Assembly: GCA_035259575.1 (NCBI GenBank)
Contig: DATFWE010000262.1
Location: 1 to 27,479, forward strand
DNA from: Haliangiales bacterium
GTDB taxonomy: Bacteria; Myxococcota_A; Polyangia; Haliangiales; SHYZ01
DNA: 27,479 nucleotides
Direction of reading: 5' to 3'
Part shown: in pieces, positions 1 through 27,479 of the stretch
Position numbering within the stretch: position 1 is the stretch's first letter
Layout of the letters: each line of letters opens with the position of its first letter
Notes under the pieces: generated by a model
The model's input: only the letters and a program-made list of their open reading frames with translations
Told to the model about the DNA's origin: nothing
The model's database searches: none
Translations under genes and position numbers: made by a program

Positions 1-2805
1 CTCGCCGCGGCCGCAGCGGACGCCGCCGCGCTCGCCGAGCTTCTGGGCGGCCCGGTCCCTGCCGAGCGCGTCGTCCGCCTCGGCGCCGGACCCTGTCGCG
101 CCGTGGTCCTGGACCCCACGCCGGAACGGCTCGCGCGCGCACGCGCGATCGTCGCCAAGGGCGAGGCGTGGATGGGCCGGAACGGTTTCTGGCACGCGCC
201 GCGGCCGCTCCTCGGCGAGGGCGGCAAGGTCGCGTTCGCGTTCCCCGGCGTCGACTCGTCATTTCAGCCGCGCGTCGACGACGTGGCGGCGCAGTTCGGC
301 CTACCGCTGCCGACGGGGACGGCTCCGGGGAGCCTGGAGGAGACCGGCGTCGGCATCGTGGGCGTGAACCGCCTCCTCCACCGGGTGCTGGTCGAGCTGG
401 GGGTCCGCCCCGACGTCCTCCTCGGTCACAGCATCGGCGAGTGGAGCGGCATGCTCGCCGCCGGGATCGTCGCCGAGAACGACGGCGACGCGTTCATCGC
501 GTCGGCCCGCCCGGGATCGCTCGAGGTCCCCGGGGTCGCGTTCGCCGCGGTGGGCTGCGGGATCGAGCGGGCCGCGGCCGCCATCGCCGGCCTGCCCGAC
601 GTCGCCGTGTCGCACGACAACTGCCCGCACCAGGTGATCCTGTGCGGGGCGGAGGCGAGCGTCGACGCGGCGCTGGCGCGCCTGCGCGCGGACGCCGTCC
701 TCGGACAGAAGCTGCCGTTCCGCTCCGGTTTCCATTCGCCGCTGTTCGCCGATTTTATGGGGCCGCACCGCGACAACTTCGCGCGCCTCGCGCTCGAGCC
801 GGCGCGCGTGCCGCTGTGGTCGGCGACGACGTGCGCCGAGTATCCCGCCGACGCGGCGGGCGTGCGCGCGCTCGCCCTTTCCCACCTCGTCGAGCCGGTC
901 CGTTTCCGCGAGCTCACCCTCGCGCTCCACGACCGCGGCGTGCGCGCGTTCGTGCAGGTCGGGACCGGGAGCCTTCCCGGCTTCATCGAGGACACGCTGC
1001 GCGGCCGCCCGCACGTCGCCGTGGCGGCGAACGTGCCCCAGCGGAGCGGCCTGGAGCAGCTCCAGCGCGTCCTGGCGACGCTGTTCGTCGAGGGCGCGGG
1101 CGGCGACGACGGCCGGGGCGTCGCGTTCGAGCGGCTCGCCGCCGCGCGGCCGGCGCGCGCCGCGACACCGCTGCGGCTGGGCGTGCCGCTGGTCCGCCTC
1201 ACCCGCCCGCTGTCGGTCGCGGCGGCGGCGCCCGAGGTGCCCGCCCATCCGGTGGCCGCCGCGTTCGCCGCATCGGTGGACTCGTTGCGGCGCGCCCAGG
1301 AGGACGTCCTCCTGCGCTTCGCCGCCCCGAAGCGGCCGCGGAGCGGCCCGCGCCAGGCGCGCTTCACCCGGCGCGTGTCGGTGGACGCGTTCCCCGAGCT
1401 CGCCGACCACACGTTCTTCCGCCAGCCCCCCGGCTGGACGACGATGACCGATCGCCACCCGGTCGTCCCGATGACCATGACCCTCGCCCTCATGATGGAG
1501 GCGGCGGCGGCGCTGGTCCCCGAGCGCACCGTCGTCGGCGTCGAGGACGTGCGCGCGTTCCGCTGGATCGCCGTGGGGGCGCCCATCGACGCCGAGCTGT
1601 CGCTCCGCTTCGACGGGAAGGATCGCGTGAGCGCGTCGATCGCCGGCTACGCCGAGGGCACGGTCGTCCTGGGCGAGCGCTATCCCGACGCGCCGCCGGC
1701 GTCCGCGGGGACGCTCGCCGCCGAGCGCCCCACCCCGAGCGACGCGGCGCGGCTCTACCGCGACCGGTGGATGTTCCACGGTCCCGCCTACCAAGGTGTC
1801 GTCGATCTCGGCCCCATGGGCGACGACGGCATCCGCGGCGTCCTCGAGGCGGGCGCGGCCAAGGGCGCGCTCCTCGACAACGCCGGCCAGCTGTTCGGCT
1901 ACTGGATCATGGTCACCAACGCCGTCGACCGGATGGCGATGCCGGTGCGGATCCGCCGCCTGCGCTTCTACGGCCCGCACCCGGCGCCGCGGGAGCGCCT
2001 CGACTGCCGCGTCGCGATCCGCAGGCAGGGCCCGCGCGAAGTGGTCGCCGATCTGGAGCTCGCGCGCGACGGGCGGGTGTGGTGCGCGATCGAGGAGTGG
2101 GAGGACCGCCGCTTCGACACCGACGCGCGCTTGTGGGACGTCTTTCGGTACCCGGAGCGTCACCTGCTCGCCGAGCCGCGCCCCGGCGGGTACGTCGTGT
2201 TCCACGACGTGTATCGCGCCGCGCCGACGCGCGAGCAGCTGTGCCGGCGTTTCCTGGGCGAGCGCGAGCGCGCCGCCTACGACGCGCAGGGGCCGCGCGG
2301 CCAGCGGGGCTGGCTGGCGGCGCGGATCGCCGGCAAGGACGCGGTGCGCGCGCACCTGTGGCGCGCCGGCCGGCGCGACGTGTTTCCCGTCGAGGTGGAG
2401 CTGGCGAACGAGCCGAACGGCCGGCCCGTCGTCGTCGCCCCGCGCGGCGCGGATCTGCGCATCTCGCTGGCGCACAAGGGCGACCTGGCGGTGGCGATGG
2501 TGGGCGAAGGGCGGGACGTGGGCATCGACGTGGAGCGGATCGAGCCGCGCGCGCCCGCGTTCGTCGCCGCGGCGTTCTCCGCCGAGGAGGCGGCGATGGC
2601 CGCCCCGGGCGAGGACCGCGAAGAGTGGTTGACCCGGCTGTGGACGGCGAAGGAGGCGGTGGGCAAGGCGCGCGGCACGGGTCTCGCGGGCAACCCGCGC
2701 CGGTGGCGGGCGACCGACCGCACCGGGGAGCGCATTCTCGTCGACGACGTCTGGGTGGAGACGCGCCGCGAGGGCGACCACATCATTGGCTGGAGCCACG
2801 CATGA
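1..2805 (+). CDS. C-terminal part of a type I PKS/FAS-like multidomain protein (5' partial, open to window edge): acyltransferase - dehydratase (double hotdog) - Sfp-type phosphopantetheinyl transferase
   Basis: No stop codon lies between position 1 and the first ATG (103) in this frame, so the gene likely continues upstream of the window. AT motifs are GKVAFAFPG, GHSIGE (nt ~424-441) and GFHSPLF. DH motifs are LADHTFF...P...LMMEAA (HxxxGxxxxP-like), HGPAYQGV (YGPxFQG-like) and LLDNAGQL. PPTase motifs in aa ~725-900 are GIDVERIE (GxDxE) and WTAKEAVGKARG (WxxKEAxxKxxG). Third-position GC is high throughout. Confidence 0.8.
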   Translation, partial: LAAAAADAAALAELLGGPVPAERVVRLGAGPCRAVVLDPTPERLARARAIVAKGEAWMGRNGFWHAPRPLLGEGGKVAFAFPGVDSSFQPRVDDVAAQFGLPLPTGTAPGSLEETGVGIVGVNRLLHRVLVELGVRPDVLLGHSIGEWSGMLAAGIVAENDGDAFIASARPGSLEVPGVAFAAVGCGIERAAAAIAGLPDVAVSHDNCPHQVILCGAEASVDAALARLRADAVLGQKLPFRSGFHSPLFADFMGPHRDNFARLALEPARVPLWSATTCAEYPADAAGVRALALSHLVEPVRFRELTLALHDRGVRAFVQVGTGSLPGFIEDTLRGRPHVAVAANVPQRSGLEQLQRVLATLFVEGAGGDDGRGVAFERLAAARPARAATPLRLGVPLVRLTRPLSVAAAAPEVPAHPVAAAFAASVDSLRRAQEDVLLRFAAPKRPRSGPRQARFTRRVSVDAFPELADHTFFRQPPGWTTMTDRHPVVPMTMTLALMMEAAAALVPERTVVGVEDVRAFRWIAVGAPIDAELSLRFDGKDRVSASIAGYAEGTVVLGERYPDAPPASAGTLAAERPTPSDAARLYRDRWMFHGPAYQGVVDLGPMGDDGIRGVLEAGAAKGALLDNAGQLFGYWIMVTNAVDRMAMPVRIRRLRFYGPHPAPRERLDCRVAIRRQGPREVVADLELARDGRVWCAIEEWEDRRFDTDARLWDVFRYPERHLLAEPRPGGYVVFHDVYRAAPTREQLCRRFLGERERAAYDAQGPRGQRGWLAARIAGKDAVRAHLWRAGRRDVFPVEVELANEPNGRPVVVAPRGADLRISLAHKGDLAVAMVGEGRDVGIDVERIEPRAPAFVAAAFSAEEAAMAAPGEDREEWLTRLWTAKEAVGKARGTGLAGNPRRWRATDRTGERILVDDVWVETRREGDHIIGWSHA

Positions 2806-3089
2806 GGGACGACGTCCTGGCCACGCTGCAGGCGATCCTGCGCGAGGTGATCGGCGAGGCGTGGGCCCAGGACGTCGAGATCACGCGCGCGACGTCGTTC
2901 AACCACGACCTCGAGCTGGAGAGCATCGAGTTCGTCGCGCTGGCGGAGAAGCTGCAAGCCGCCTACGGCCGCAGCGTCGATTTCACCGGTTGGCTGTCGG
3001 AGATGGAGCTCGACGAGATCATCGCCCTCCGCGTGGGGGACGTGGTGGAGTTCATCGAATCATGCCCGTCGTCCAGCAAAACGGCCTGA
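2802..3089 (+). CDS. Discrete acyl carrier protein (about 95 aa)
   Basis: Translation is MRDDVLATLQAILREV...FNHDLELESIEFVALAEKL. DLELESIEF matches the DLGxDSL phosphopantetheine-attachment motif with the Ser retained. The ATG at 2802 overlaps the upstream TGA (ATGA). This is the in-frame tail of track ORF 168..3089, whose upstream 880 codons are an Arg/Gly-rich artefact. Confidence 0.8.
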   Translation: MRDDVLATLQAILREVIGEAWAQDVEITRATSFNHDLELESIEFVALAEKLQAAYGRSVDFTGWLSEMELDEIIALRVGDVVEFIESCPSSSKTA

Positions 3090-3829
3090 GCTTCCACACG
3101 CAGGCCTTCGGCGCCGGTCCCCCGGCGGTGATGCTGCACGGCCTGCTCATCGGCAGCATGACGACGTGGTATTTCGGCGCGGCGCCGCGGCTGGCGCGCA
3201 GCCACCGGGTGCTCCTCTACGATCTGCGCGGGCACGGCAAGAGCGCCCGCGCGCGCCGGGGGTACGACCTGGCCACGATGGTGCGCGACCTCGACGCGCT
3301 CCTCGGCGACTTCACCGACGAGCCGGCGACGCTGGTGGGCCACAGCTACGGCGCGCTGACCGCGCTGCGCTTCGCCATGCTCCACCCCGAGCGGGTGGCG
3401 CGGCTCGTCCTCGTCGAGGCGCCGCTGCCGCCGCTCCGCCTGCCCGAGCTCGACCATTTCCTGCGCCGCCCGCGCGGCGAGATGGAGTCGGCGCTGCCCG
3501 ACGAGATCCGCCACGCGCTCCGTCGGGGCGGGCGCCAGGCGCTGCGTCTCGTGGATCAGCTCGCGTTCCTGGCCGCGGAGAGCAGCCTGCTCGCCGACCT
3601 CGACGCCGAGCCGGAGATCGGCGACGACGAGCTGGCCGCGCTCGCCTGCCCGCTGCTCGCGATCTACGGCAACCGCTCGAGCTGCCGGCCGGCGGGCGAT
3701 CGCCTGCGCCGGGTGGTGCCCGGCGCGCAGCTGGTCCTGCTTCCCGGCGGACACTTCCTGCCCACCGAGGCGGCCGAGGCGCTCACCCACGAGATCGTGC
3801 GCTTCTGCGCGGGGGACGTCGATGGCTGA
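3062..3829 (+). CDS. Alpha/beta-hydrolase fold protein (esterase/thioesterase/acyltransferase-like), paralog 1
   Basis: Starts MPVVQQNGLSFHTQAFGAGPPAVMLHGLL. The HG oxyanion region and the nucleophile elbow GHSYG (LVGHSYGALTA) are present. It is about 255 aa, typical of the family, and overlaps the ACP 3' end by 28 nt. Confidence 0.75.
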   Translation: MPVVQQNGLSFHTQAFGAGPPAVMLHGLLIGSMTTWYFGAAPRLARSHRVLLYDLRGHGKSARARRGYDLATMVRDLDALLGDFTDEPATLVGHSYGALTALRFAMLHPERVARLVLVEAPLPPLRLPELDHFLRRPRGEMESALPDEIRHALRRGGRQALRLVDQLAFLAAESSLLADLDAEPEIGDDELAALACPLLAIYGNRSSCRPAGDRLRRVVPGAQLVLLPGGHFLPTEAAEALTHEIVRFCAGDVDG

Positions 3830-4601
3830 GGTCGTGTGTCGCGGCGTGCGCCTGCACGTGCAGCGCCTGGGCGAGCCGGGGCGCGGGACGCCGGTCGTGT
3901 TCGTCCACGGCCTGGTGATGGACAACCTGTCGAGCTGGTATTTCACGCTCGCCAACCTGGCGGCGCGCACGACCGACGTGATCCTCTACGACCTGCGCGG
4001 CCACGGCCTCAGCGAGCGGCCGGCGACCGGTTACACGACCGAGGACATGGTGGCCGACCTGGCGGCGCTCCTCGACGAGCTGGGCGTGGACCAGCCGGTG
4101 GCGCTGGTCGGCAACAGCTTCGGCGGGATGGTCGCGCTCGCGTTCGCGCGCGCGCACCCCGATCGCGTCGATCGCATCGTGCTCGTCGACGCCCACGTCG
4201 GCGGCGACGGGTTCACAGGCAAGATGGTCGAGACGCTGAGCCTCGACGGCGACGAGCGCGACCGCAAGATCGCCGAGCATTTCGCGTCCTGGCTGGGGCG
4301 GCACAGCGCGCGCAAGCGCACGCGCCTCGCCGACGCCGCCGAGGGTCTCGTGCGGGGGACGACGCTCGTCGACGATCTCCGCCGGACGCCCCCGGTCACC
4401 GCCGAGGAGTTGACGCGCATCCGCGCGCCCGTCCTGGCGCTCTACGGCGAACGGTCCGACATCGTCCACGACTGCGCGCCGCTGCTCGCGTTCGTGCCCG
4501 AGTGCACGGTCGCGCTCGTCCCCGGCTGCACCCACTCGCTCCTGTGGGAGGCGACCGAGGAGGTCAAGCGGCGCACGCTCGCCTTCCTGGAGTCGCGCTG
4601 A
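3822..4601 (+). CDS. Alpha/beta-hydrolase fold protein, paralog 2 (tandem duplicate of the preceding gene)
   Basis: Starts MAEVVCRGVRLHVQRLGEPGRGTPVVFVHGL. The nucleophile elbow is GNSFGG. It shares the LYDLRGHG(K/L)S and AxDLxALLD blocks with paralog 1. Its ATG overlaps the upstream stop (ATGGCTGA, 8-nt overlap). Confidence 0.8.
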   Translation: MAEVVCRGVRLHVQRLGEPGRGTPVVFVHGLVMDNLSSWYFTLANLAARTTDVILYDLRGHGLSERPATGYTTEDMVADLAALLDELGVDQPVALVGNSFGGMVALAFARAHPDRVDRIVLVDAHVGGDGFTGKMVETLSLDGDERDRKIAEHFASWLGRHSARKRTRLADAAEGLVRGTTLVDDLRRTPPVTAEELTRIRAPVLALYGERSDIVHDCAPLLAFVPECTVALVPGCTHSLLWEATEEVKRRTLAFLESR

Positions 4602-4602
4602 C

Positions 4603-5757
4603 GTGGCGCGGATCCTGTTCGTGGTCCCGCCGCTCGTCGGCCACACCAACCCCACCGTGTCGGTGGCGGCGGCGCTCGGCGCGCTCGGACACGCGGTGGC
4701 GTGGGCGGCGCACCCCGACAAGGCGGCGCCGCTCCTGCCGCCCCGGGCGCGCATCCTGTCTCTGGGCGCTTGCGACGAGTCGGTGTTCGCGCCGATCTTA
4801 GAAAGGTCGCGACGGGTGCGCGGGCTCGAGGGGCTGCAGTTTCTGTGGCGGGACTTCCTGGTGCCGCTGGCGCGCGCGATGCTCCCCGCCGTCGACGTCG
4901 CGATCGCCGAGGCGCGTCCGGATCTCGTCGTCGTCGACCAGCAGGCGATCGGCGGCGCGCTGGCGGCGCGGCGCCGCGGCGTCCCCTGGGCGACGCTGTG
5001 CACGACCAGCGCCGAGCTCACCGATCCGCTCGCGGGGCTGCCCAAGGTCAAGGCGTGGACGATCGCCCAGCTCGCCGCGCTGCAGGAGGAGGCGGGGCTG
5101 CCGGTGGTGGAGCGCCCCGACCTGTCGCCGCGGCTGGTGGTGGTGCTGTCGACGCCGGCGCTCATCGGCGACGTGTCGGCGTTTCCGCCGCAGTGCCGCT
5201 TCGTCGGGCCGTCCATCCACGAAAGGCCCGACGCGACGCCGTTCCCGTGGGACGCGCTGGAGGAGCGCCCGCGCGTGCTCGTCTCGCTGGGGACGGTCAA
5301 CGCCGAACGGGGCGAGGCGTTCTATCGCACCGCGTTCGCGGCGCTCGCGGGCGCGCCGTTCCAGGTGATCCTCGTCGCGCCGGACGGCCTCGGCGGCGCG
5401 CCGCCGCCGGGGTTCCTCGTGCGCCCGCGCGTGCCGCAGCTCGCGCTCCTCCCCCACGTGCAGGCGGTGGTGAGCCACGGCGGGCACAACACGGTGTGCG
5501 AGGCGCTGGCGCACGGCATCCCGCTTGTGGTGACGCCGATCAAGGACGACCAGCCGGTGATCGCCGAGCAGGTCGTGCGGGCCGGCTGCGGGCTGCGCCT
5601 GCGCTTCGGGCGGCTGGAGCCGGCGGCGCTGCGCGCCGCGGTGGACCGCGTGCTGAACGAGCCGTCGTTCCGGGACAACGCGGCGCGCGTGGCTGCGTCG
5701 TTCGCCACGGCCGGCGGGGCGCGCGCCGCCGCGCGGCTGCTGGACGAGGTCGTATGA
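4603..5757 (+). CDS. GT1-family UDP-glycosyltransferase (MGT/UGT-like, OleD/CrtX-type)
   Basis: The N-terminus ILFVVPPLVGHTNPTVSVAAALGALGH is a typical GT1 acceptor-domain start. The C-terminal UDPGT signature is VSHGGHNTVCEALAHGIPLVVTPIKDDQPVIAEQV. A GTG start sits 1 nt after the upstream stop. Confidence 0.85.
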   Translation: MARILFVVPPLVGHTNPTVSVAAALGALGHAVAWAAHPDKAAPLLPPRARILSLGACDESVFAPILERSRRVRGLEGLQFLWRDFLVPLARAMLPAVDVAIAEARPDLVVVDQQAIGGALAARRRGVPWATLCTTSAELTDPLAGLPKVKAWTIAQLAALQEEAGLPVVERPDLSPRLVVVLSTPALIGDVSAFPPQCRFVGPSIHERPDATPFPWDALEERPRVLVSLGTVNAERGEAFYRTAFAALAGAPFQVILVAPDGLGGAPPPGFLVRPRVPQLALLPHVQAVVSHGGHNTVCEALAHGIPLVVTPIKDDQPVIAEQVVRAGCGLRLRFGRLEPAALRAAVDRVLNEPSFRDNAARVAASFATAGGARAAARLLDEVV

Positions 5758-7043
5758 CCCGGCCGCGCCACGCGTTCGTGGTGCGGGATCGGGCGACGAT
5801 CCCGCCGCTCGGAGCGCCCGCGGCGGAGTCGTGGCTGCTCGGCGGCCGGCTCCACGGCGAGATGCGGCGGCGCCTCGAGGCGTTCGGCCTCACGGTCGAG
5901 CGAGTCGACGGTGTGGAGGAGGCGGTCGCGCGCGCCGGCCGCTGCGCCGACGGGGCGATCGTGACGCACGATTCGGTGGCGTTCTCGCGCTCGGTCGTGC
6001 GCGGGCTCCTCGACGCGGTCGCGCGCGATCCGCGGCCGGCGCTGGCCGCGGCGCTGCCGCGCGCGCTGGCGACACGGCGGCTGTCGCACATCGGCGGCCT
6101 GGACGAGACGACCGTCGGCGGGACGCCCGCGTTCACCGCGCCGCTCTACGCCGTGCGCGCCGGCGCCGGCGTCGCCGCCGCCGAGCCCGTGCTGTTGCCG
6201 TATCGCGAGCTCGAGTGGAAGCTCCCCGTCCCCGTCGGCATGCTCGGCCGCAGCGAGGAGCCGTTCGGCGCGACCGACACCTACCTGGTGCGGGTGGACC
6301 ACTGGGGGCACATCCTGCACCTCAACGTCGCCGCGATGATCGCCGCGTGGTTCGAGCGTGGGCAGACGCTGGGCGGCAAGCTGTGGTACCTGTGGCGCGC
6401 GCTGTGCGGCTTCCCCTGGCGACGGGGGCGTCTCGCCGCGGCGATCCGGCGCGTGCACCGCACGGCGAAGGTCCACCACACGGCGCACGTCGAGCTGTCG
6501 GTGGTGGAGGCGGGCGCCGAGATCGGCCCGCACGCCGTGGTGAAGAACTCGTACGTGGCGCGCGGCGCGCGCATCGACGACGGGGCGCTGGTGAACGCGT
6601 GCGTCGTGGGCGAGGGGGCGTTCGTGGGATCGGCCGCCGCCGTGTTCAGCTCGGTGCTCTATCCCGGCGCGTTCGCGGCGCAGCACAAGATGCAGTTCTC
6701 GGTGCTGGGGGAGAGCTCGGTGGCGTTCACCGGGTCATATTTCTACGACACGAACTTCGAGCGCAACGTGCACGTGGCCCATCGCGGCCGCGTCGTCGAT
6801 TCGGGGGGGCGATTCATGTCCGTCTGTCTCGGCCCCTGGGCGCGCGTCGCGGGCGGCGTATGGATCGCGAGCGGGCGCGAGGTGCCGGCGCACGCGCTCA
6901 TCGTGCAGCCCCCCGATCGCGTGCTCCACCGCGTCGACGACGCGCTGGCCGCGAGCCGCATGACGACCGTGAAGGACCGCGGGCTCGTCGACGTGGGCCC
7001 GCTTCCGGCGGAGGCGGAGGAAGGACCGAAGCGGCTCGCGTGA
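5754..7043 (+). CDS. Hexapeptide-repeat (left-handed beta-helix) protein with an N-terminal domain of unknown function; possible sugar-nucleotidyltransferase-like or acyltransferase
   Basis: The ATG at 5754 overlaps the GT stop (ATGA). The C-terminal half has imperfect [LIV]-G-x-x-x-x repeats (VVKNSYVARGARIDDGALVNACVVGEGAFVGSAAAVFSSVL...). It is the in-frame tail of track ORF 4701..7043. The N-terminal 200 aa were not recognised. Confidence 0.55.
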   Translation: MTRPRHAFVVRDRATIPPLGAPAAESWLLGGRLHGEMRRRLEAFGLTVERVDGVEEAVARAGRCADGAIVTHDSVAFSRSVVRGLLDAVARDPRPALAAALPRALATRRLSHIGGLDETTVGGTPAFTAPLYAVRAGAGVAAAEPVLLPYRELEWKLPVPVGMLGRSEEPFGATDTYLVRVDHWGHILHLNVAAMIAAWFERGQTLGGKLWYLWRALCGFPWRRGRLAAAIRRVHRTAKVHHTAHVELSVVEAGAEIGPHAVVKNSYVARGARIDDGALVNACVVGEGAFVGSAAAVFSSVLYPGAFAAQHKMQFSVLGESSVAFTGSYFYDTNFERNVHVAHRGRVVDSGGRFMSVCLGPWARVAGGVWIASGREVPAHALIVQPPDRVLHRVDDALAASRMTTVKDRGLVDVGPLPAEAEEGPKRLA

Positions 7044-7053
7044 GGCGGGCGCC

Positions 7054-7377
7054 TCAGAACCAGGCCACGTATCCGGTGACGAAGCTGACGCTTCTGGGGT
7101 CGGTGGGGTGCACGCGCACGCCGCCCACGCTGACCTCCACGTAGAGCTCGGCCGCCTTCCAGATCATGCCCGCCGTTCCGCGCGGGTCGCGGGTGTTCTC
7201 CCGTCGAGGATCGGCCGTCTGCGGCAGCGGCGGAAGCTCCAGCGACCCGATGTACATGGTCGCGGTCGGTCGCGGGTGGTGGGAGACCACCTTGGTGAGG
7301 CGTTCGCGCACGTCGTCCGCGCGGGCGGCAGATGTGCCACCAAGGAGCACCAGCAACACGATGAGGCGGGACCGCAT
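7054..7377 (-). CDS. Small exported hypothetical protein (107 aa) with an N-terminal signal peptide
   Basis: Translation is MRSRLIVLLVLLGGTSAARADD...GYVAWF. GC3 is about 89%. It is the in-frame tail of artefactual track ORF 7054..10248, and the ATG (rc of cat at 7375-7377) was verified. Confidence 0.5.
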   Translation of the reverse strand: MRSRLIVLLVLLGGTSAARADDVRERLTKVVSHHPRPTATMYIGSLELPPLPQTADPRRENTRDPRGTAGMIWKAAELYVEVSVGGVRVHPTDPRSVSFVTGYVAWF

Positions 7378-7436
7378 GAGTCCCAGGGGGAGCTGCACGC
7401 GGCGTACCACCGCCCCGGGCACGGCATGACATGTAC

Positions 7437-8984
7437 TTACGGCTCGCGCTGGGGTGAACGCTCCCCACCGCCTGGTAACGCGCTCCCCGGCGCGCGCCGC
7501 CAACGGTTCTCGCGCCACGGCGACTTCACGAGCTTCCCATCGATCGCCGACAGCGACGGCTTCGCCCCCAGCGCGGCCGCGGGGCAGGTCGAGGTCGCGC
7601 GGTACGCGAGCGCGGCCGCGAGGCGCCCTTCGCCCGGGTCCCCGAGCGCGTGGGTGAAATCGTCCGCCACCTGGCAGCCGGGCAGGCCCGTCGGCCCCGT
7701 GCCGCCCGGCGTGAACCCGTCGGCGTAGTCCCCGAACCCCTTGTCGTTCACCCCCTGGAACTCGATCGAGAAATACGTCGTCCCGCAATTGTCCTGCGGA
7801 TAGAACCCGTACGGCTTGCCGCACGTCGTCGAGCCGATCTGGATCACGTCCACGTCGATGCCGCGAAGGCTGTTCATCACCGATTCGCTCGCGGAACAGG
7901 TATCGAGGCCGGTCAGCACGAACACCCGCCCCAGGCCGAGCGAGGGCAGCGGCGCCCCGTTCGGCGCGGTGAACCCGAGCGACTTGTCCCAGAACGGCAT
8001 GGGCGCCAGCACTTCGCCGGTGACCGGGTCCCTCGTCGGGTACTTGTCGTTGAACTCGGTCCGCTCGAAGGTCTTGCCGGCCGTCCTCGCCCGACCCGCG
8101 ATCATGAAGGCGAGCTCGCTCGCGATGTCGAGGTAGCCGCCGCCGTTGTAGCGCATGTCGATCACGAGGTCGGTGACCCCGGCGGTCCGGAGCTGGCCGA
8201 TCGCGGCGATGAGCGCCGCCTCGGCGGTCGCGAGGTGATCGTTGAACGTCATGTAGCCGAGCGAGCCCGTCGCCGTCGATAGCACCTTGACGTTCTTGAC
8301 CGGCACGCTCATGACCTTCGCCGACGTCAGCACGACCGTGCGCGCCGTCGCCGCGCCGAGGTCCCGCAGCACGAACGTGTGGCTCTCGTTGAGCGCCGAC
8401 GGATAGAGCCCCTCGTTGAGCGTGCGGACGTCCGAACCGTTCTGTACGTCCACGCCGTCGATGGTCAGCACCTCCGCCCCGCGCGCCACGTTGGCCGCGG
8501 CTGCCGGAGTGCCGGGGTCGACGTCCGCCACTACCAGCTTGCGCGGCGGCCGAGCCGCGAGCAGCGCCCACTGCAGGCCGTAGCCCGCCTGCACGCCCGA
8601 CTGCGACAGCGCCTCCCAGTCCGCCGTCGCGTACGTGAAGTGGAACTGGTCCTTGGGCTTGCCCGACGCCGTGATCGCCGGGGTCTTGAGCGCCTCGAAG
8701 TAGGTGACGGCCGTCGCGTAGTCGCCCGGATTCACCGACGGCACCTCGCGGTACCACAGGTAGAGCTCGTCGGTCCAGGAGCGCAGCCAGCTCTTCTCGT
8801 CGTCGAGCGTGCCCTGCGTGTCGGGGTAGGGCCTGTTCGTCCCGGGGTCGATGCCGGTCCGCGGCGACGCGCACTTCGCGGCGAACATCGACGACGGTGG
8901 AAACGGTGAAGACGGACCCTCGTCGCCCCCGCACGCGGCCGCGGCCAGTGCCAGCCCGCACATTGCTCGTGACGCCATGACCAC
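7437..8984 (-). CDS. S41-family peptidase (C-terminal processing/tail-specific protease-like), lipoprotein
   Basis: Signal peptide with lipobox MASRAMCGLALAAAAC|GG. The S41 signature block is LVIDMRYNGGGYLDIASELA, upstream of a PDZ-like region. The start is a GTG at 8984 or, more likely, the ATG at 8978. Confidence 0.8.
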   Translation of the reverse strand: MVMASRAMCGLALAAAACGGDEGPSSPFPPSSMFAAKCASPRTGIDPGTNRPYPDTQGTLDDEKSWLRSWTDELYLWYREVPSVNPGDYATAVTYFEALKTPAITASGKPKDQFHFTYATADWEALSQSGVQAGYGLQWALLAARPPRKLVVADVDPGTPAAAANVARGAEVLTIDGVDVQNGSDVRTLNEGLYPSALNESHTFVLRDLGAATARTVVLTSAKVMSVPVKNVKVLSTATGSLGYMTFNDHLATAEAALIAAIGQLRTAGVTDLVIDMRYNGGGYLDIASELAFMIAGRARTAGKTFERTEFNDKYPTRDPVTGEVLAPMPFWDKSLGFTAPNGAPLPSLGLGRVFVLTGLDTCSASESVMNSLRGIDVDVIQIGSTTCGKPYGFYPQDNCGTTYFSIEFQGVNDKGFGDYADGFTPGGTGPTGLPGCQVADDFTHALGDPGEGRLAAALAYRATSTCPAAALGAKPSLSAIDGKLVKSPWRENRWRRAPGSALPGGGERSPQREP

Positions 8985-9675: not shown

Positions 9676-10266
9676 GTGCGCAGCAACCCCGCGACGGCGA
9701 TCGTCTGCCTGCCCCTCCTCGACGCGGGGGAGTGCGACGCATGGCTCGCGCATCTCCAGGGGTGCGACTGGCAGGACGCGCGCGTCGCCTCGCCGGCCTA
9801 CGGCTCGTCGGTCGAGCGGGTCATCCGCAGCACGGCGACGACCGAGTGCCGCGACCCCGAGCGCATGGCGCGCATCGTCGACTGGATCGCCGAGCTCAAC
9901 CGCGGGCTGTTCCGCTTCGACCTCGACGGTCCGTCGCCGTCCGACCCGCTGCTGGCGATGCGCTACCGCGAGGGCGACCACTTCGACTGGCACATCGACA
10001 ACTCGATCGAAGCGGTCGCCACGCGCAAGCTGAGCTTCACGCTCCAGCTCACCCCGCCGGACGAATACGACGGCGGCGACCTCGAGTTCGCCATGTACGC
10101 CGCGAGCTACGGCGGCACCGCCCCGTTCGCCGGCTACACCCGCGACGTGCGCCGGCGCGGCGCGATCACCGTGTTTCCCGCGTTCCACCTCCACCGCGTG
10201 AGCCCCGTCACCCGCGGCACACGCCTCGCCTTGGTCGGCTGGCTTCACGGCCCGCGGTTCCGATGA
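9676..10266 (+). CDS. Fe(II)/2-oxoglutarate-dependent oxygenase (PKHD/PiuC-YbiX-like hydroxylase family)
   Basis: HxD...H facial triad: DHFDWHIDNS and FHLHRVSPVTRGTRLALVGW. A GTG start at 9676 is preferred over the in-frame ATG at 9601, because codons 9601-9675 have AT-rich third positions. Confidence 0.7.
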   Translation: MRSNPATAIVCLPLLDAGECDAWLAHLQGCDWQDARVASPAYGSSVERVIRSTATTECRDPERMARIVDWIAELNRGLFRFDLDGPSPSDPLLAMRYREGDHFDWHIDNSIEAVATRKLSFTLQLTPPDEYDGGDLEFAMYAASYGGTAPFAGYTRDVRRRGAITVFPAFHLHRVSPVTRGTRLALVGWLHGPRFR

Positions 10267-11003
10267 TCGTGGACTCGCGCGAACGCTTCAGCGCCACCGC
10301 CGACGCCTATCGGCGCTATCGGCCCGGTTACCCCGCCCCGCTCCTCGACTGGATCGCGGCCACCACCGGCGCGCCGCCCGACGCCCGCGTGGCCGACATC
10401 GGCTGCGGCACCGGCATCTCCAGCCGCTTTCTGGCGACGCGCGGCTTCCGCGTCGTGGGCGTCGAGCCGAACGCGGACATGCTCGCGCACGCCCGCGCGG
10501 CCGGCGGCGGGCCCACCTACGTCCGGGGGGAGGCCGCGCGCACCGGCCTCCCCGACGCCTCGGTCGACCTCGTCACCGCGGCCCAGGCGTTCCACTGGTT
10601 CGAGCTCGAGCCGACGCTCGTCGAGATCCGGCGGATCGCCGTGCCCGGAGCGTGGATGTGCGCATTCTGGAACGTCCGCGTCGCGACCCCGTTCAACGAC
10701 GAGTACGAGCGCATCCTCCACGCTTACTCCAGCGAGTACGCGCCGCTGTCCGACACCCTCGATCCGCGCGACGCGATCCGCGCGGCCGTCGCCGGAACGG
10801 TGTGCACCGAGATGCACAACGACGAGGCGCTGGCGTGGGACGCGGTCCTGGGGCGCGCGCGTTCCGCGTCGTACGTCGCGCACGGCGTGGCCGATCTCGC
10901 CGGTTTCGAACGGGAGCTGCGGGCGGCCTACGAGCGCCACGCGCGGCCCGACGGCACGCTCGTGTGGGCGCTGCGCACCGTGGCGGCGGCGTGGCCGGCG
11001 TGA
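10263..11003 (+). CDS. Class I SAM-dependent methyltransferase
   Basis: Motif I is VADIGCGTGISSRFLATRGFRVVGVEPNADML, with an acidic residue at the end of beta-2 and motif II DLVTAAQAFHWF. The ATG overlaps the oxygenase stop (ATGA). Confidence 0.8.
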   Translation: MIVDSRERFSATADAYRRYRPGYPAPLLDWIAATTGAPPDARVADIGCGTGISSRFLATRGFRVVGVEPNADMLAHARAAGGGPTYVRGEAARTGLPDASVDLVTAAQAFHWFELEPTLVEIRRIAVPGAWMCAFWNVRVATPFNDEYERILHAYSSEYAPLSDTLDPRDAIRAAVAGTVCTEMHNDEALAWDAVLGRARSASYVAHGVADLAGFERELRAAYERHARPDGTLVWALRTVAAAWPA

Positions 11004-12469
11004 TGGCGCCCAGGCGCTACGCCATCGCGCGCCTCGTCGGGCTGGCCGTCCATTTCGTCGAGGTCCTGGCGCTGACGCGCCTGTTCCCCGACGTACGGCT
11101 CGCCCTGGCGCTGGGGATGGCCGGCGTCTGCCGCCTCGTCGGCGCGATCGCGGGGACGCGCCCGGCCCGCGCGACGGGCGCGGTCGCGCTCGCCTCCCTG
11201 GCGGTGTGCCTGGTCGTCGTGCGCCTCTACGGCGGACCGCCCGGCGCGCTCGACGTCTACGCCGTGGTGTGCGCGGCGCGCCTCGCGTTGCAGGTCGGCG
11301 GCCGTCTGGACGAGATCGAGGCCGGCCTGGCGCCCGGCTCGCTCCTCGTGGTCGCGCTCGCCACCGCGGCGGCGTCGCTCCACACCCTCGTCGTCGTCCA
11401 TCTCCTCGCCGGCGCCTTCGCCGTCGCGCTGACGTGGCCGCGCGCGGTCGATCCCGCGTCGGTCGCCGAGGCCGCCGTGGGGCGACTGGCGCCGACGGTC
11501 GGCGCGGTCGCGTGGCTCGTCGGTCAGGGGATGGTCGCGGGCGCGGGCGCCGGCGTCGACGTCGTGGCCGCCGTCGTCTCCCTGCCCGCGTTCCTCGCGG
11601 CCGGCCAGCTCGCCGGCAACCGCCTCCGCCGCGCCGCCGCCGACCGGCACGGCGATCTCTCGGTGACCGCGCTCTACACCAGCGGCGCCTGGAGCTGGGG
11701 GCGCCTCCCGGGCGCCGAGCTCCTCGCCAGCCGCGAGGCGAAGGCCGCGTTCGACGGCACCAACCTCGTCCTGGCGGTGACCAGTCTGTTCGCGTCGGGA
11801 CCGTCGCTGCGCTGCTCGCTCATCCAGCGGCACCTCATGATCGATCGCCTGCTCGCCGACGCCGGCGCCAAGCACGTCCTCGAGCTCGCCGCCGGCCTGT
11901 CGCGGCGGGGCGTGGCGGTCACCGCCGACCCGACCGTGCGCTACACCGAGGTCGACCGCGCCCCGGTGATCGCCCACAAACGCCGCCTGCTCGCGCGCAG
12001 CGACGCCGGCCGCGCGGCGCTCGCCCGGCCCAACCTCCGCCTCGTCGGGGCGGATGTCGTCGACGCCCCGCTGGGCGATCTCGCCGACGCGCCCGACGGC
12101 GCGCCGCTGTTCGTCATCGCCGAGGGTCTGCTCATGTACCTCGACGCGCCGGCGCAGCGCTCGCTGTGGCGCCGCATCCGGGCGCTGTTCGACCGCCGCC
12201 CCGGCGTCCTGGTGTTCGATCTCGTGCCCCTCGCCGAGCACGCCCGCGTGGGCCGCGCCGGCCGGGCGCTCCGCTGGCTGTTCCGGCGCGCCACCCGCGG
12301 CGCCCGCTTCGCGCGGGATGCGCGCACCCGCCACGACATCGCCGCCGAGCTCCGGGACCTCGGCTTCGCCGTCGAGCTCCTCGAGCCGAGCGCGGTGATC
12401 GATCGCTGGCGGCTGCCCCACGGCGACGTCCGCACCCAGCAGCTGTTGTTCGTGTGCCGCGTGGGCTGA
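11003..12469 (+). CDS. Fusion protein: N-terminal polytopic membrane domain (~230 aa, 5-6 predicted TM helices) + C-terminal TcmP / leucine-carboxyl-methyltransferase-family SAM-dependent O-methyltransferase domain
   Basis: Hydrophobic N-terminal segments include LVGLAVHFVEVLALT, LALALGMAGVCRLVGAI, AVALASLAVCLVVV, LLVVALATAAASLHTLVVVHLLAGAFAVAL and VAAVVSLPAFLAAG. C-terminal motifs are VLELAAGLSRRG (motif I), YTEVDRAPV and the LCM/TcmP hallmark FVIAEGLLMYL. The start overlaps the upstream stop (TGATG). Confidence 0.7.
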   Translation: MAPRRYAIARLVGLAVHFVEVLALTRLFPDVRLALALGMAGVCRLVGAIAGTRPARATGAVALASLAVCLVVVRLYGGPPGALDVYAVVCAARLALQVGGRLDEIEAGLAPGSLLVVALATAAASLHTLVVVHLLAGAFAVALTWPRAVDPASVAEAAVGRLAPTVGAVAWLVGQGMVAGAGAGVDVVAAVVSLPAFLAAGQLAGNRLRRAAADRHGDLSVTALYTSGAWSWGRLPGAELLASREAKAAFDGTNLVLAVTSLFASGPSLRCSLIQRHLMIDRLLADAGAKHVLELAAGLSRRGVAVTADPTVRYTEVDRAPVIAHKRRLLARSDAGRAALARPNLRLVGADVVDAPLGDLADAPDGAPLFVIAEGLLMYLDAPAQRSLWRRIRALFDRRPGVLVFDLVPLAEHARVGRAGRALRWLFRRATRGARFARDARTRHDIAAELRDLGFAVELLEPSAVIDRWRLPHGDVRTQQLLFVCRVG

Positions 12470-12486: not shown

Positions 12487-13374
12487 GTGCCCGACGCACC
12501 GCGCTGGTTCCGAGACGCGCTCGCCGCGCCGCGGTCCGAGCACACGATCCATGTGGCGGGCGCCGGCATCCACTACGTTCGCTGGGGCGACGGCGGCAAG
12601 CCGGGGCTCGTCCTGGTCCACGGCGGCGCCGCGCACGCCGAGTGGTGGTCGTTCCTGGCGCCGCTGCTCACGCGCCAGTACGACGTCGTGGCGCTGGACC
12701 TGAGCGGCCACGGCGACAGCGACCGCCGCGAGGAGTATCCGCGTCGCGTGTGGGCCGACGAGGTTCTGGCCGTCATCGCCGACGCCCACTTCCCCGGCCC
12801 GCCGGTGCTGATCGGCCACAGCATGGGCGGGCTGGTGAGCATCGTCGCCGCGTCCGTCTACGGCGACGAGCTCGCCGGCGCGATCATCGTCGACGCGCCG
12901 GTGCGCAAGCCCGACCCGGAGAGCGAGGAGGGCAACTACGGGCGGAGCTTCCGCCACCCCAAGGTCTACCCGACGCTCGACGAGGCGGCGGCGCGGTTCC
13001 GCCTGATCCCGCCCCAGCCCGTCGAGGCCGCGTACATCGTCGACCACATCGCGCGCGCCTCCCTGCGCCGCGTCGACGGCGGCTGGACGTGGAAGTTCGA
13101 CCCGCGCGTGTTCATCAAGTTCTCCAAGGAGAAGATGAGCGACTACCTGTCGAGCACGCGCTGCCGGGTGGCGCTCCTGCGCGGCGAGAAGAGCATCGTC
13201 GTGCCCCCCGAGACGGGGACCTACATGTACGAGCTCCTCAGCCGCACCTCGCCCCTGGTCGAGATCCCCGAGGCGCACCACCACCTCATCCTCGATCAGC
13301 CGCTGGCGTTCATCGCGGCGGTGCGGGCGATCCTCGCCGACTGGGAGCACTCGATCCCGCGCGGGCCGGCGTGA
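12487..13374 (+). CDS. Alpha/beta-hydrolase fold protein, paralog 3
   Basis: PGLVLVHGGAAHAEWW, ALDLSGHGDSD and nucleophile elbow IGHSMGG. A GTG start is given, and codon bias supports coding from 12487. An alternative start is the GTG at 12553. Confidence 0.75.
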   Translation: MPDAPRWFRDALAAPRSEHTIHVAGAGIHYVRWGDGGKPGLVLVHGGAAHAEWWSFLAPLLTRQYDVVALDLSGHGDSDRREEYPRRVWADEVLAVIADAHFPGPPVLIGHSMGGLVSIVAASVYGDELAGAIIVDAPVRKPDPESEEGNYGRSFRHPKVYPTLDEAAARFRLIPPQPVEAAYIVDHIARASLRRVDGGWTWKFDPRVFIKFSKEKMSDYLSSTRCRVALLRGEKSIVVPPETGTYMYELLSRTSPLVEIPEAHHHLILDQPLAFIAAVRAILADWEHSIPRGPA

Positions 13375-14143
13375 GCGTGGCGACCAGCGTGCCGCGGTCG
13401 AACACCCACAGGTCCCCGGGGCGGCCCTGGGTCCACGTCTCGTTGTGGGTGAGCGGCGCGGTGGCGACGATCGCGACCCGATCGCGCGCCGTGGTCACCC
13501 GCGAGAAGTCGATGCGGACGTCCTCGTCGGCGAGCTGGGCCACGCCGAACGGCGCCTTGCGGATGATGTACCACAGCTTCGTGGAGCAGCGCGCGTAGAG
13601 GTGGCGGCCGTCGCCGAGGAGGAAGTTGAACGTGCCGTCGGCGCCGAGCTCGGCCCCGATGTCGGCGACCGCTTCCCACAGGTCGCTCGGCCGGCGCGGG
13701 TAGCCGGCGAACCGGCGATCCAGGCGCGCGAGCAGGCAGCAGAACGCGTGCTCGCTGTCGGTCTGCCCGATCGGGCGAAAGCGCCCGAGCCGCCGCCGCC
13801 GGACGCGGCGCAGCGTGCCGTTGTGGGCGAACACCCAGGTGCGACCCCACAGCTCGCGCGCGAACGGATGGGTGTTGGCGAGCGTGGTCTTCCCGCGCGT
13901 CCGGCGCCGCACGTGCCCCACCGCGAGCATCGTCTTGATCGGGTGCTCGCCGAGGAAGCTCGCGAGCGGGCTGCGCGCGGCCGGCGCCGGCTCGAGGAAC
14001 ACGCGCGCCGCGCGCCCCTCGTAAAACGCCAGCCCCCAGCCGTCGCCGTGCGGTCCGGTCTTGCCGCCGCGGAGCCGGAGACCCGTGAACGAGAACACGA
14101 TGTCGGTCGGCACGTTGCATTCCATCCCGAGGAGCTCACACAT
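13310..14143 (-). CDS. Class II (Ntn-type) glutamine amidotransferase, YafJ-like
   Basis: N-terminal Met-Cys nucleophile MCELLGM, with GxxGxxHGDGWG and HxRxAT-like blocks (GHVRRRTRGKTTLANTHPF). The 3' end overlaps the convergent hydrolase by 65 nt. Confidence 0.75.
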   Translation of the reverse strand: MCELLGMECNVPTDIVFSFTGLRLRGGKTGPHGDGWGLAFYEGRAARVFLEPAPAARSPLASFLGEHPIKTMLAVGHVRRRTRGKTTLANTHPFARELWGRTWVFAHNGTLRRVRRRRLGRFRPIGQTDSEHAFCCLLARLDRRFAGYPRRPSDLWEAVADIGAELGADGTFNFLLGDGRHLYARCSTKLWYIIRKAPFGVAQLADEDVRIDFSRVTTARDRVAIVATAPLTHNETWTQGRPGDLWVFDRGTLVATLTPARAGSSAPSRRGSPAPPR

Positions 14144-14174
14144 CGCGGCGACCGACGATTATACTGGCGGCGCG

Positions 14175-15968
14175 ATGCGCGGCACCGTGCTCGATGCATT
14201 GGGGCGCGCCGGCGATGCCGGCGACGGCGGCGTGGCCGCCGAGCTGGGCGTGCGGGGCGATCCGCTCCTGCGCGCGCGCGCCCGCCGCCAGCTCCACCGC
14301 GCGGTGTCGGTGGCGCGCGCCCGCACCGCCCTCACCGACGAGGTCCACGTCGTCCGCGTCGCCTACCTCATCGCCGCCGGCGCGCCGCCCGAGGCGCCCG
14401 ATGACGCCCCCGCGGTCGCCGAGGCCTACGCGCGCGTCCGCCGCGGCGCGCGGCGGCGGCTGCGCCCGTGGTGGCTGACCGGCGCGCTGGTCCTCGTCGC
14501 CGTCGGCGCCTTCGGCTACGCCCGGGGGTGGTGGCCGTCGCGCGGCGCGTACCGCCCCGCCGCCGCGCCCATCCGCGCCGCCGAGGCCGGGTCCACCGCG
14601 GCGGCGGCGTTCTGGCCGATGGCGGCGGCGCTCACCGAGTACGTGTCCGTCCTCGACGCGTGGGCGCGGGCCCGCCGCGCGGGCGACTCCGCCGGGACCG
14701 CGCGCGCCGACGAGCTCCTTGGGATGGCCCGCGCCGCCGTCATGCGCACCGCCGCCGGGCTGGGCGGCGCCACGCGCCGCTTCGACGAGCTTCTGACCGC
14801 GGCGCGCGAGGCGGCGGCCGCCGCGCCGTGGGCGCTGGAGGATGCCGCCGCCAAGCTCTACGCCGCCGTGGCCGCCGCCGACGACGAGGCGCCCGCCTAC
14901 GGCGTCTACTTCGACGCCGACGTCGTCATGGGGCAGAAGGGGCAGGAGGTCCTCGTCTGGATCTACGCCGTCGATCGCGTCGCGCGCTACGCCGCCGGGG
15001 CGACCGAGATCCGGGCCATCCAAGTGCGCCGGCTCGACAACCTCAACATGGTGCCCGACCTGGCCGGGCTCACCCGCCCCCACCTGCGCGAGGCGATCGT
15101 GCTGCTCGAGGTGCTCGAGCAGCTCATGGCGACCCTGTTCCTGCCCGCGCTCGCCGACGGCGCCTCCCTGCGCGTGGTGGATCCGCCGTCAGGCGCGAGC
15201 TTCGCCGAGCTCGCCGCGGTGGAGGCGCGCGCCGGCGAGATCGTGCGCGCCGAGCTGGGCGCCGCCCTCGGCGCGGACCGCGCCGCCGCCGCCAAGCTAG
15301 GCGAGTCGCTGACGCGGCGACGCGAGCTGTTCGCGCGCCTCGGCCGGGCGCTCGCCCCGCGCGGAATCTCGCTCGCGACGCCGCGCGGCCTGCGCCTGCC
15401 GGAGCAGGCGCGCTCCGAGCTCGACGCGATCCTGCCCCCGATCGAGCTCATGGAGATCGACGCCCTCGAGGCGGAGATCGGCGGCGAGCCCGCATCCAAG
15501 GCGTTCGCCGCGGCGATGGGAGCCATGGTCGACACCGTCGAACGGCACGAGGTGCAGCACCGGCTCGATCACGAGGCGGGCGGCCTGCCGCCGGTGGCGG
15601 CGCTGACCGCGCTCGGGGCCGACGACCGGGCGCGCGCCGAGCTCAGCGCCTACCTCGCCGAGATCCATCGCGACCCGCGCACGCCGCGGATCGGCCTCAC
15701 CCTCCTCATGAGGTTCGTGTTCGATTCCCGCCGTTGGGGCACGTCGGAATCGCTCGCGGGGATCGTCCTCCTCGAAGGGCTGGGCCGCGAGCTCGCCATC
15801 GGCGCGACCCCCATCGCCAAGAAAGGCGAGATCGACCGCGCCGCCGCCGCCAGGCTCTACCTCGCGGTGACCGACGCCCAGCCGGACCGGCTGCGCGACG
15901 CGGCGGGCCGGCTGTGGGCCAAGCTGTTCGGCTCGCCCCTGCCTCCGCTCGTGCGGGCGCAGCCCTGA
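14175..15968 (+). CDS. Ala-rich hypothetical membrane-anchored protein with an HExxH motif
   Basis: Tail of track ORF 14061..15968. The ATG at 14175 is the first start after the convergent GATase gene. There is a single predicted [20 protein letters not shown], and the motif [10 protein letters not shown] near the C-terminal domain. No other family signature was recognised. Confidence 0.5.
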
Positions 15969-16891: not shown

Positions 16892-16926
16892 CAGCGCGCC
16901 CCGCGCGGGTGCAGAATACGCGCACC

Positions 16927-23414: not shown

Positions 23415-23415
23415 C

Positions 23416-27469: not shown

Positions 27470-27479
27470 GCGGCGATTG

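Follow-up and report, generated by a model that had tools for sequence, protein, structure and literature searches.

A conserved carrier protein, hydrolase and glycosyltransferase tail behind a PUFA-synthase-family lipid synthase in a Haliangiales genome points to a probable long-chain glycolipid

What is made by a synthase whose gene is followed at once by genes for an acyl carrier protein (ACP), two hydrolases and a glycosyltransferase (GT)? Such a gene set opens the contig DATFWE010000262.1 (GenBank assembly GCA_035259575.1), a stretch of 27,479 nucleotides from the metagenome-assembled genome (MAG) of a Haliangiales bacterium, referred to below as the window. The original prediction, made from the sequence of the window, was a complete cassette in which a polyketide synthase (PKS) makes an acyl or polyketide chain that is released or transferred and then glycosylated. 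Our analysis suggests that the locus is the distal part of a seven-gene 'secondary lipid' operon and that its product is probably an amphiphilic long-chain glycolipid. Since an enzyme of the polyunsaturated fatty acid (PUFA) synthase family always precedes the ACP, the hydrolase(s) and the sugar transferase, a hitherto unknown long-chain glycolipid is preferred to a classical polyketide drug. The acyl-chain logic of the original prediction was supported; the classical PKS was not.

At 74% G+C the window gave noisy raw lists of open reading frames, and a clean gene set was obtained by third-position GC (GC3) frame analysis together with translation. Six genes in a row, all on the + strand, occupy positions 1-7043. 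The first, g1 (1-2805; 934 codons), has an open 5′ end cut by the contig end, and is followed by a free-standing ACP, g2 (2802-3089; 95 aa), two α/β hydrolases, g3 (3062-3829; 255 aa) and g4 (3822-4601; 259 aa; HKA90633.1), a nucleotide-sugar GT of the GT1 family (GT-B fold), g5 (4603-5757; 384 aa), and a two-domain protein resembling GlmU and ST0452, g6 (5754-7043; 429 aa). The g1/g2 and g5/g6 junctions are both ATGA (2802-2805 and 5754-5757). The ATG of g3 at 3062 precedes the end of the g2 stop codon at 3089, an overlap of 28 nt that recurs among related loci. The g3/g4 junction is ATGGCTGA (3822-3829), and the TGA of g4 (4599-4601) is separated by one base from the GTG of g5 at 4603. These genes and junctions agree with those predicted, and Pfam and NCBIfam profile searches upheld the ACP and two hydrolase calls as well as the acyltransferase (AT), dehydratase (DH), phosphopantetheinyl transferase (PPTase) and GT1 calls, the four that the original prediction had made dependent on such searches. 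Short overlaps are by themselves ordinary in GC-rich operons; the signal above chance is the conserved gene order.

Which synthase does g1 belong to? Three domains were found in g1: a malonyl-type AT at residues ~70-380 (Acyl_transf_1 at 117-346, 62 bits, Pfam; GHSIG with Ser144), a PS-type DH at residues 450-707 (PS-DH/PKS_DH_N, Pfam; His470 and Asp626xxxGln630) and an Sfp-type PPTase at residues 720-934 (ACPS at 840-915, 62.5 bits; motifs GIDVE, WTAKEA and ISLAH). Neither an ACP nor a ketoreductase (KR) was found between AT and DH with Pfam. Full-length homologs of g1, mostly from Myxococcota and Acidobacteriota metagenomes, have 1400-1450 aa in the order ketosynthase (KS)-AT-DH-PPTase, the best being 60% identical. 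In an alignment of twelve homologs, Ser144 of GHSxG, His470, Asp626 and Gln630 of DxxxQ, the PPTase motifs GxDxE and WxAKEA, and the PPTase residues S822, A824 and H825 were invariant. The motifs of an active KS (DAACASS, HGTGT and GH), which lie outside g1, were shared by at least 90% of the homologs. Only one KS, with its active Cys, is present in the D subunit. A KS fragment (P0177) with intact Cys/His/His motifs, 93% identical to a relative's protein, is encoded on a 2089-nt contig of the same MAG. The AT, DH and PPTase of g1, the full-length homologs and this fragment together place KS-AT-DH-PPTase on one polypeptide. We read g1 as the 3′ part of the 'D' subunit of a secondary lipid synthase, with a predicted KS domain as its off-contig N-terminus. 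The closest solved relatives of the g1 AT were ordinary FabD-type malonyl transacylases; a PfaB-like 'terminal acyltransferase' role was considered and rejected, PfaB not being among the structural matches.

An exact-protein look-up with g2 for upstream sequence matched only a 4-kb Logan contig, and the part preceding g1 was read from the loci of relatives. The closest of these, L085, is colinear with the window at 82-88% nucleotide identity (87% when given as one figure). Its full locus consists of a 2176-aa gene, a 1408-aa KS-AT-DH-PPTase gene, an ACP, two hydrolases, a GT1 and a left-handed β-helix (LbH) gene, followed, as in the window, by an S41 peptidase, a 2-oxoglutarate (2OG) oxygenase, a methyltransferase and an LCM methyltransferase. 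The g1 of the window corresponds to about residues 475-1408 of the 1408-aa protein. A more distant relative, L084, has the same seven-gene operon, and its subunit A contains an NMO/enoyl reductase (ER) domain of PfaD type (264-520), KS (616-1005), AT (1141-1423), a PP-binding domain (1616-1659) and KR (1937-2152). The subunit A gene stands immediately upstream of the D gene in L002, L003, L084 and L085, and in Pendulispora brunnea and L002 the first gene is likewise ER-KS-AT-ACP-KR. For the window the position of this gene is off the contig; in L085 the 2176-aa counterpart directly precedes the D gene. The KS, KR and ER left open by the original prediction are thus found in relatives, as ER-KS-AT-ACP-KR in subunit A and as the N-terminal KS of the D subunit. 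It follows that the cassette in the window is not the complete unit that had been claimed: the contig includes neither the KS belonging to g1 nor any of the upstream subunit.

A fused pfaDA plus pfaBC-PPTase architecture has been described as that of an uncharacterised secondary lipid synthase, with Renibacterium cited, in a 2026 survey (PMC13291983), and Shulse and Allen placed such clusters in their Types M-T (PMC3098273). The PPTases of Types M-T, a group that includes the Ars fatty acid synthase, have the diagnostic motifs x(G/D)xP and hShxH, whereas PUFA-type enzymes have (F/S)NxSH (PMC3098273). The g1 PPTase carries NGRP and ISLAH, fitting the former pair, and the PUFA-type FNxSH motif is absent from it. 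Judged by architecture and motifs, and with the reference strains compared by description, the synthase is most probably a secondary lipid synthase of the fused pfaDA plus pfaBC-PPTase kind within the PUFA-synthase family, a two-subunit enzyme that resembles a type I fatty acid synthase (FAS), works iteratively and reduces fully; this replaces the PKS of the original prediction (PMC3098273, PMC13291983). Domain searches of g1 and of the L084 subunit A found no FabA-type DH/isomerase and no chain length factor (CLF), the sole DH being of PS type, and subunit A carries just one PP-binding domain, with no tandem ACPs. Because KR, PS-type DH and ER are all present, the default output would be a saturated long acyl chain, which is also the likeliest output that we predict.

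Is the gene set behind the synthase a peculiarity of this genome? One genome per species was scanned for relatives of g1, the best 80 loci were searched with the window proteins, and the tail was counted in the 67 of them whose downstream sequence reaches at least 3.5 kb. Relatives of g1 are encoded in at least 545 species. The loci searched are spread over Myxococcota, Acidobacteriota, Actinomycetota (Pseudonocardiaceae, Acidimicrobiia), Planctomycetota, Gemmatimonadota and beta- and gammaproteobacteria. An ACP, at least one hydrolase and a GT1 follow directly after the synthase in that order in 64/67 loci, with two hydrolases in 38 and a single one, always of the g4 type, in 26, chiefly actinobacterial. 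The chromosome of a cultured acidobacterium, Sulfidibacter corallicola M133, has two separate synthase-ACP-hydrolase-GT1 loci (L034 and L080). The original prediction had matched this composition to no characterised cluster, yet its core is shared by hundreds of genomes and is not unique to the window. What is new in this analysis is the conserved ACP-hydrolase(s)-GT1 tail; the synthase type itself was already known, though uncharacterised. With tblastn, g1 gave an interrupted match in L034, L080 and L083, where the ACP lies ~1.8-1.9 kb after the best-matching segment; an insertion in the D subunit may be the cause.

The most constant member of the tail is the free ACP, an ACP-like gene standing immediately 3′ of the D subunit gene in all 67 loci. 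The g2 protein matched PP-binding (PF00550) at 22 bits against a cutoff of 20.8 (Pfam). Its phosphopantetheine serine lies in the motif DLELESIEF, and serine and motif are conserved, essentially invariant, across 78 orthologs. As a side observation, the ACP-like frame in L008, L012, L016, L021, L027 and other loci lacks the usual stop and runs out of frame through the first hydrolase gene, and what appears as a conserved 'C(P/L)SS..TA' tail at the C-terminus of the ACP is the hydrolase N-terminus read out of frame.

The two hydrolases are about 36% identical to each other and matched Abhydrolase_1 at 84 bits (g3) and 105 bits (g4) in Pfam; g4 also passed the cutoff of 26.4 for Thioesterase (PF00975), with 31 bits. 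Both have the HG oxyanion motif, a nucleophile motif (GHSYG in g3, GNSFG in g4) and a C-terminal His, and these motifs are conserved in 34 orthologs of g3 and 47 of g4. The g3 type is missing from actinobacterial versions of the operon, leaving the g4 type as the universally retained paralog. A third α/β hydrolase gene lies downstream in the window (12487-13374, + strand). It is only about 30% identical to g3/g4 and, being absent from the otherwise colinear L085, represents an indel between close relatives.

The GT1 gene is present in 65/67 loci. In the window, g5 matched UDPGT at 68 bits (cutoff 19.5) and EryCIII-like_C at 72 bits (cutoff 31.7), as well as Glyco_tran_28_C (Pfam). This places it in GT1; it scored 178 bits against the cutoff of 260 for the MGT subfamily model TIGR01426 (NCBIfam) and falls outside that subfamily. 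Its closest solved structures are YjiC and OleD/OleI, which are small-molecule GT1 enzymes.

The last gene of the operon, g6, had been predicted to encode a hexapeptide-repeat (LbH) protein. Its Pfam and NCBIfam scores were below cutoff, with no LbH hit above threshold. The predicted fold came from an AlphaFold model (pLDDT 90.5), in which a nucleotidyltransferase-like N-domain is joined to a left-handed β-helix. The archaeal ST0452 is a bifunctional sugar-1-phosphate nucleotidylyltransferase/acetyltransferase, and the g6 model matched it over its full length with Foldseek (E 6.6e-11, TM 0.57-0.66); GlmU, GMPPB (GDP-mannose pyrophosphorylase) and eIF2B were also matched along the full length. 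The N-terminus of g6 is AFVVRDRATIPPLG, from which the nucleotide-binding signature GxGxR is absent, and no glycine-rich loop was found among the invariant columns of the g6 alignment. Because the N-domain lacks GxGxR, an active pyrophosphorylase is less likely than an LbH protein that modifies sugars or acyl groups or has a regulatory role. The g6 family is small, at about 50 proteins, and a g6-like gene occurs 3′ of the GT only in L084/L056, L085 and L014. The LbH gene, originally counted as part of the cassette, is thus outside the conserved core.

What follows the core varies between lineages, but these neighbours are enzymes that decorate lipids or sugars, which favours a glycolipid. In many Myxococcota the core is succeeded by a ~600-aa membrane methyltransferase and an LCM-family methyltransferase; no similarity was found between the former and either g6 or the window gene g10, so that a fusion of g6 with it and a relationship of g10 to it were both rejected. 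Sulfotransfer_3 enzymes of two families are found near the core in nine loci (L015, L071, L073, L082 and L084; L018, L064, L067 and L078), a WS/DGAT acyltransferase lies directly 3′ of the GT1 in four actinobacterial loci (L038, L063, L065 and L077), and a GDSL lipase is among the genes after the core in some loci. These lineage-dependent neighbours suggest sulfated or further acylated forms of one lipid. In the window, three + strand genes identified with Pfam, their limits taken from L085, encode a 2OG-Fe(II) oxygenase (9676-10266), a class I S-adenosylmethionine (SAM) methyltransferase (10263-11003) and, 3.9 kb downstream of the operon, a membrane-anchored LCM-family methyltransferase (10991-12469). 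The last has an N-terminal part of ~220 aa with several hydrophobic helices, a multi-pass membrane domain, fused to LCM. Its LCM domain is 56% identical to the in-operon LCM gene of L002 and to those of L004, L008 and others, and for this reason the trio at 9676-12469 probably belongs to the same pathway as the operon, two convergent genes intervening.

How might these enzymes act together? Gene content, intact domains and conserved gene order were observed; how long and how saturated the chain is, in what order it is processed once the synthase has made it, and which sugar and acceptor atom are used belong to the scheme that we propose. By homology, subunits A and D would build the chain iteratively. 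The PPTase of the D subunit would convert both carriers to the holo form, the ATs would load malonyl units, the KSs would extend the chain, and KR, PS-type DH and ER would reduce it in each round. This cycling would leave ACP loaded with a long acyl chain, mostly saturated, as with ArsA/ArsD, which make saturated C22-C26 chains that are kept on the ACP and handed to downstream enzymes (PMC3098273, PMC6274091). The free ACP would receive or carry the final intermediate and act as the hand-over carrier between synthase and tail; it is perhaps the cognate carrier of the D-subunit KS-AT, and the last β-position may stay oxygenated, giving a hydroxyl. One or both of the Ser-His α/β hydrolases would then free the chain, as a thioesterase or an O-acyltransferase, and the GT1 would put a sugar from a nucleoside diphosphate (NDP)-sugar onto the lipid hydroxyl (or carboxyl). 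Decoration here may involve the GlmU-like LbH protein, modifying or supplying the sugar, with the 2OG oxygenase and the LCM and SAM methyltransferases as probable further participants; elsewhere it may fall to sulfotransferases or the WS/DGAT acyltransferase. An LCM enzyme, being of the carboxyl-methyltransferase type, would fit a product with a free carboxylate.

Several observations weigh against this scheme. The acceptor for glycosylation is uncertain, because a fully saturated acid offers no hydroxyl for the GT1, and the role given to the discrete ACP is conjecture. Subunit A lies outside the window and was seen in relatives' loci, and the synthase was classed by architecture and motifs, with ArsA/ArsD and the Renibacterium cluster compared by description. 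The locus is an orphan in that no product is known for any member of the operon family, and no description of an ACP-hydrolase-GT1 tail was found in the searchable literature. Where the acidic residue of the triad is expected, g3 shows no clear conservation. The nearest characterised relatives of g3 and g4 are generic esterases, lactonases and haloperoxidases, the PDB matches of g4 being generic esterases. The RhlA sequence used for comparison was verified against PDB 8ik2; g4 matched it only locally (38% over the first 106 residues, 47 bits), g3 matched it at E 0.002, and at least 59 other PDB hydrolases outscored it. Membership of g3/g4 among RhlA-type acyl-ACP O-acyltransferases was therefore rejected, there being no specific full-length relationship, and with a local match for g4 and a minimal one for g3 the RhlA/RhlB pair serves as a mechanistic analogy, not as a family.

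In the main rival reading, the GT1 would build or extend a sugar head group and the hydrolases would O-acylate the sugar from the ACP, giving a sugar ester by analogy with RhlA, OlsI or mycolyl-type enzymes. α/β-Fold O-acyltransferases that use carrier-bound acyl groups exist, and such a route would suit a saturated chain that has no hydroxyl to glycosylate. It is also consistent with the dedicated ACP immediately before the hydrolases in 67/67 loci, with the WS/DGAT acyltransferase after the GT in some actinobacterial loci, and with g4, which matches the OlsI O-acyltransferase model over its full length (E 1.8e-12) in addition to its local similarity to RhlA. However, these hits are far under the family cutoffs (47 bits against 385 for OlsI), generic esterases score higher, and the conserved core has no sugar-biosynthesis genes. 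We regard the acyl-sugar route as rather unlikely. Less likely again is a version with a PKS, as originally predicted, making a partially reduced polyketide that would be released and glycosylated as a diffusible specialised metabolite such as an antibiotic. PKS-type domains (PS-DH, and KS and AT with PKS-like best hits), a GT1 nearest to natural-product and macrolide glycosyltransferases, and the ability of an iterative synthase to skip reductions would all accord with it, but the KR-DH-ER set is complete, and there is no modular repetition, thioesterase or reductase (TE/R) domain, methylmalonyl signature or core-conserved resistance or export gene. A near-identical core in at least five phyla speaks more for a physiological lipid of the envelope than for an antibiotic, and the architecture has been classified as that of a secondary lipid synthase (PMC3098273, PMC13291983). 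A polyketide antibiotic is accordingly an improbable product.

The fusion of a C-terminal PPTase to KS-AT-...-DH is a hallmark of the enediyne PKS (PKSE), and PfaA was among the weak best NCBIfam hits, which raises the question of a PUFA synthase or of an enediyne- or polyene-type iterative PKS with a built-in PPTase. Membership of the PUFA synthases (PfaABCDE) was rejected on the lack of a FabA-type DH, a KS-CLF pair and tandem ACPs, and the missing FabA-type DH and CLF and the one ACP domain in subunit A argue against a PUFA or polyene product. The PPTase motif is hShxH, not FNxSH (PMC3098273). Membership of the PKSEs was likewise rejected: in g1 the AT is followed by the DH with neither ACP nor KR in between, the ER is in the partner subunit, and no enediyne cassette genes were found in the window or in related loci. 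Either enzyme is very improbable here. Hardly credible is a housekeeping type I FAS, which the original prediction had itself named as the finding that would overturn it. The enzyme is indeed type I FAS-like, with a full reductive domain set over two subunits, but it is scattered unevenly within phyla, is encoded twice in Sulfidibacter, and is invariably linked to the ACP, hydrolases and GT1. The bulk fatty acids of Myxococcota come from type II FAS, which also counts against it. A long-chain glycolipid made by a dedicated secondary lipid synthase thus remains the reading that we prefer.

Beyond the operon, which ends at 7043, the stop codon of a convergent gene follows after 10 bases, and next comes an S41 peptidase gene on the minus strand. 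The convergent gene (7054-7377, minus strand; 107 codons; stop 10 nt from the operon stop) encodes a small protein with a clear signal peptide (MRSRLIVLLVLLGGTSAARA). A short GC hairpin (7042-7055) covers both convergent stop codons, and apart from it a consensus scan for promoters and terminators near the operon end found none. Positions 7048-7504 have no counterpart in L085, where an unrelated 181-aa open reading frame stands. Further along are a glutamine amidotransferase gene (13310-14143; HKA90643.1), a gene for a 635-aa protein without a Pfam match (14061-15968, +), a Band 7/SPFH gene, and a gene for a protein of about 970 aa with weak β-propeller (lactonase/SGL) hits only (~16900-19824, +), the Band 7/SPFH gene lying between the last two. 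The end of the window (23392-27479) encodes a NeuB-family synthase, a cytidylyltransferase (CTP_transf_3), a histidine phosphatase and a capsule-synthesis protein, and has the look of a locus for nonulosonic acid or capsule sugars, with no relation to the operon.

How does the operon compare with known systems? The closest likeness is to Type M of Shulse and Allen (Renibacterium salmoninarum, Frankia and Streptomyces avermitilis), in which ER-KS-AT-ACP-KR is followed by KS-AT-DH-PPTase (PMC3098273, PMC13291983). These secondary lipid synthases share the Type M-T PPTase motifs and have an uncharacterised product; in this comparison, made with the reference strains by description, they differ in that an ACP-hydrolase-GT1 tail is not mentioned for them in the searchable papers. 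The present copy comes from a Haliangiales MAG and has an extra GlmU-like gene. ArsA/ArsD of the Azotobacter vinelandii ars phenolic-lipid operon (Type P) belong to the same Types M-T branch (PMC3098273). In the Ars operon the synthase is joined by two type III PKSs for the phenolic head group, whereas here there is no type III PKS and the partners are a free ACP, α/β hydrolases and a GT1.

The cyanobacterial heterocyst glycolipid pathway (hgl plus HglT, Type F) is alike in making a PUFA-synthase-like very long chain that is then glycosylated, giving a specialised envelope lipid. There the fatty alcohol is released by a reductase; the present operon has no reductase, and its GT is a GT1 enzyme. 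The Hgl synthase also differs in having KS-CLF-AT on HglC and no fused PPTase (PMC3098273). The RhlA/RhlB rhamnolipid pair shares the order of an α/β-hydrolase-fold enzyme acting on acyl-ACP and a GT-B glycosyltransferase, but the similarity is generic to the fold, and its substrates come from FAS II rather than from a dedicated megasynthase and ACP as here. The enediyne PKSE (KS-AT-ACP-KR-DH-PPTase) is likewise iterative, with a C-terminal Sfp-type PPTase and a PS-type DH; its ACP and KR are internal to one protein that lacks an ER, whereas here ACP, KR and ER are on a separate subunit and enediyne accessory genes are absent.

Secondary lipid synthases of the PUFA family are widespread and few of their products are known, among them heterocyst glycolipids, Azotobacter phenolic lipids and zeamine-type hybrids (PMC13291983). 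The window itself is one incomplete copy among hundreds and adds modestly to this; the value lies in the prediction for the whole family. We tentatively suggest, as a possibility rather than an expectation, that the tail-linked Type M-like synthases of at least five phyla make a class of very-long-chain glycolipids not described before, which would be methylated, sulfated or acylated according to lineage, with the free ACP as the hand-over point. With the fixed tail, the 'unknown lipid' becomes something definite to look for, a long-chain lipid predicted to bear a sugar, and Pendulispora brunnea (CP089982, about 6.47-6.50 Mb) and Sulfidibacter corallicola are cultured carriers in which the prediction could be tested.

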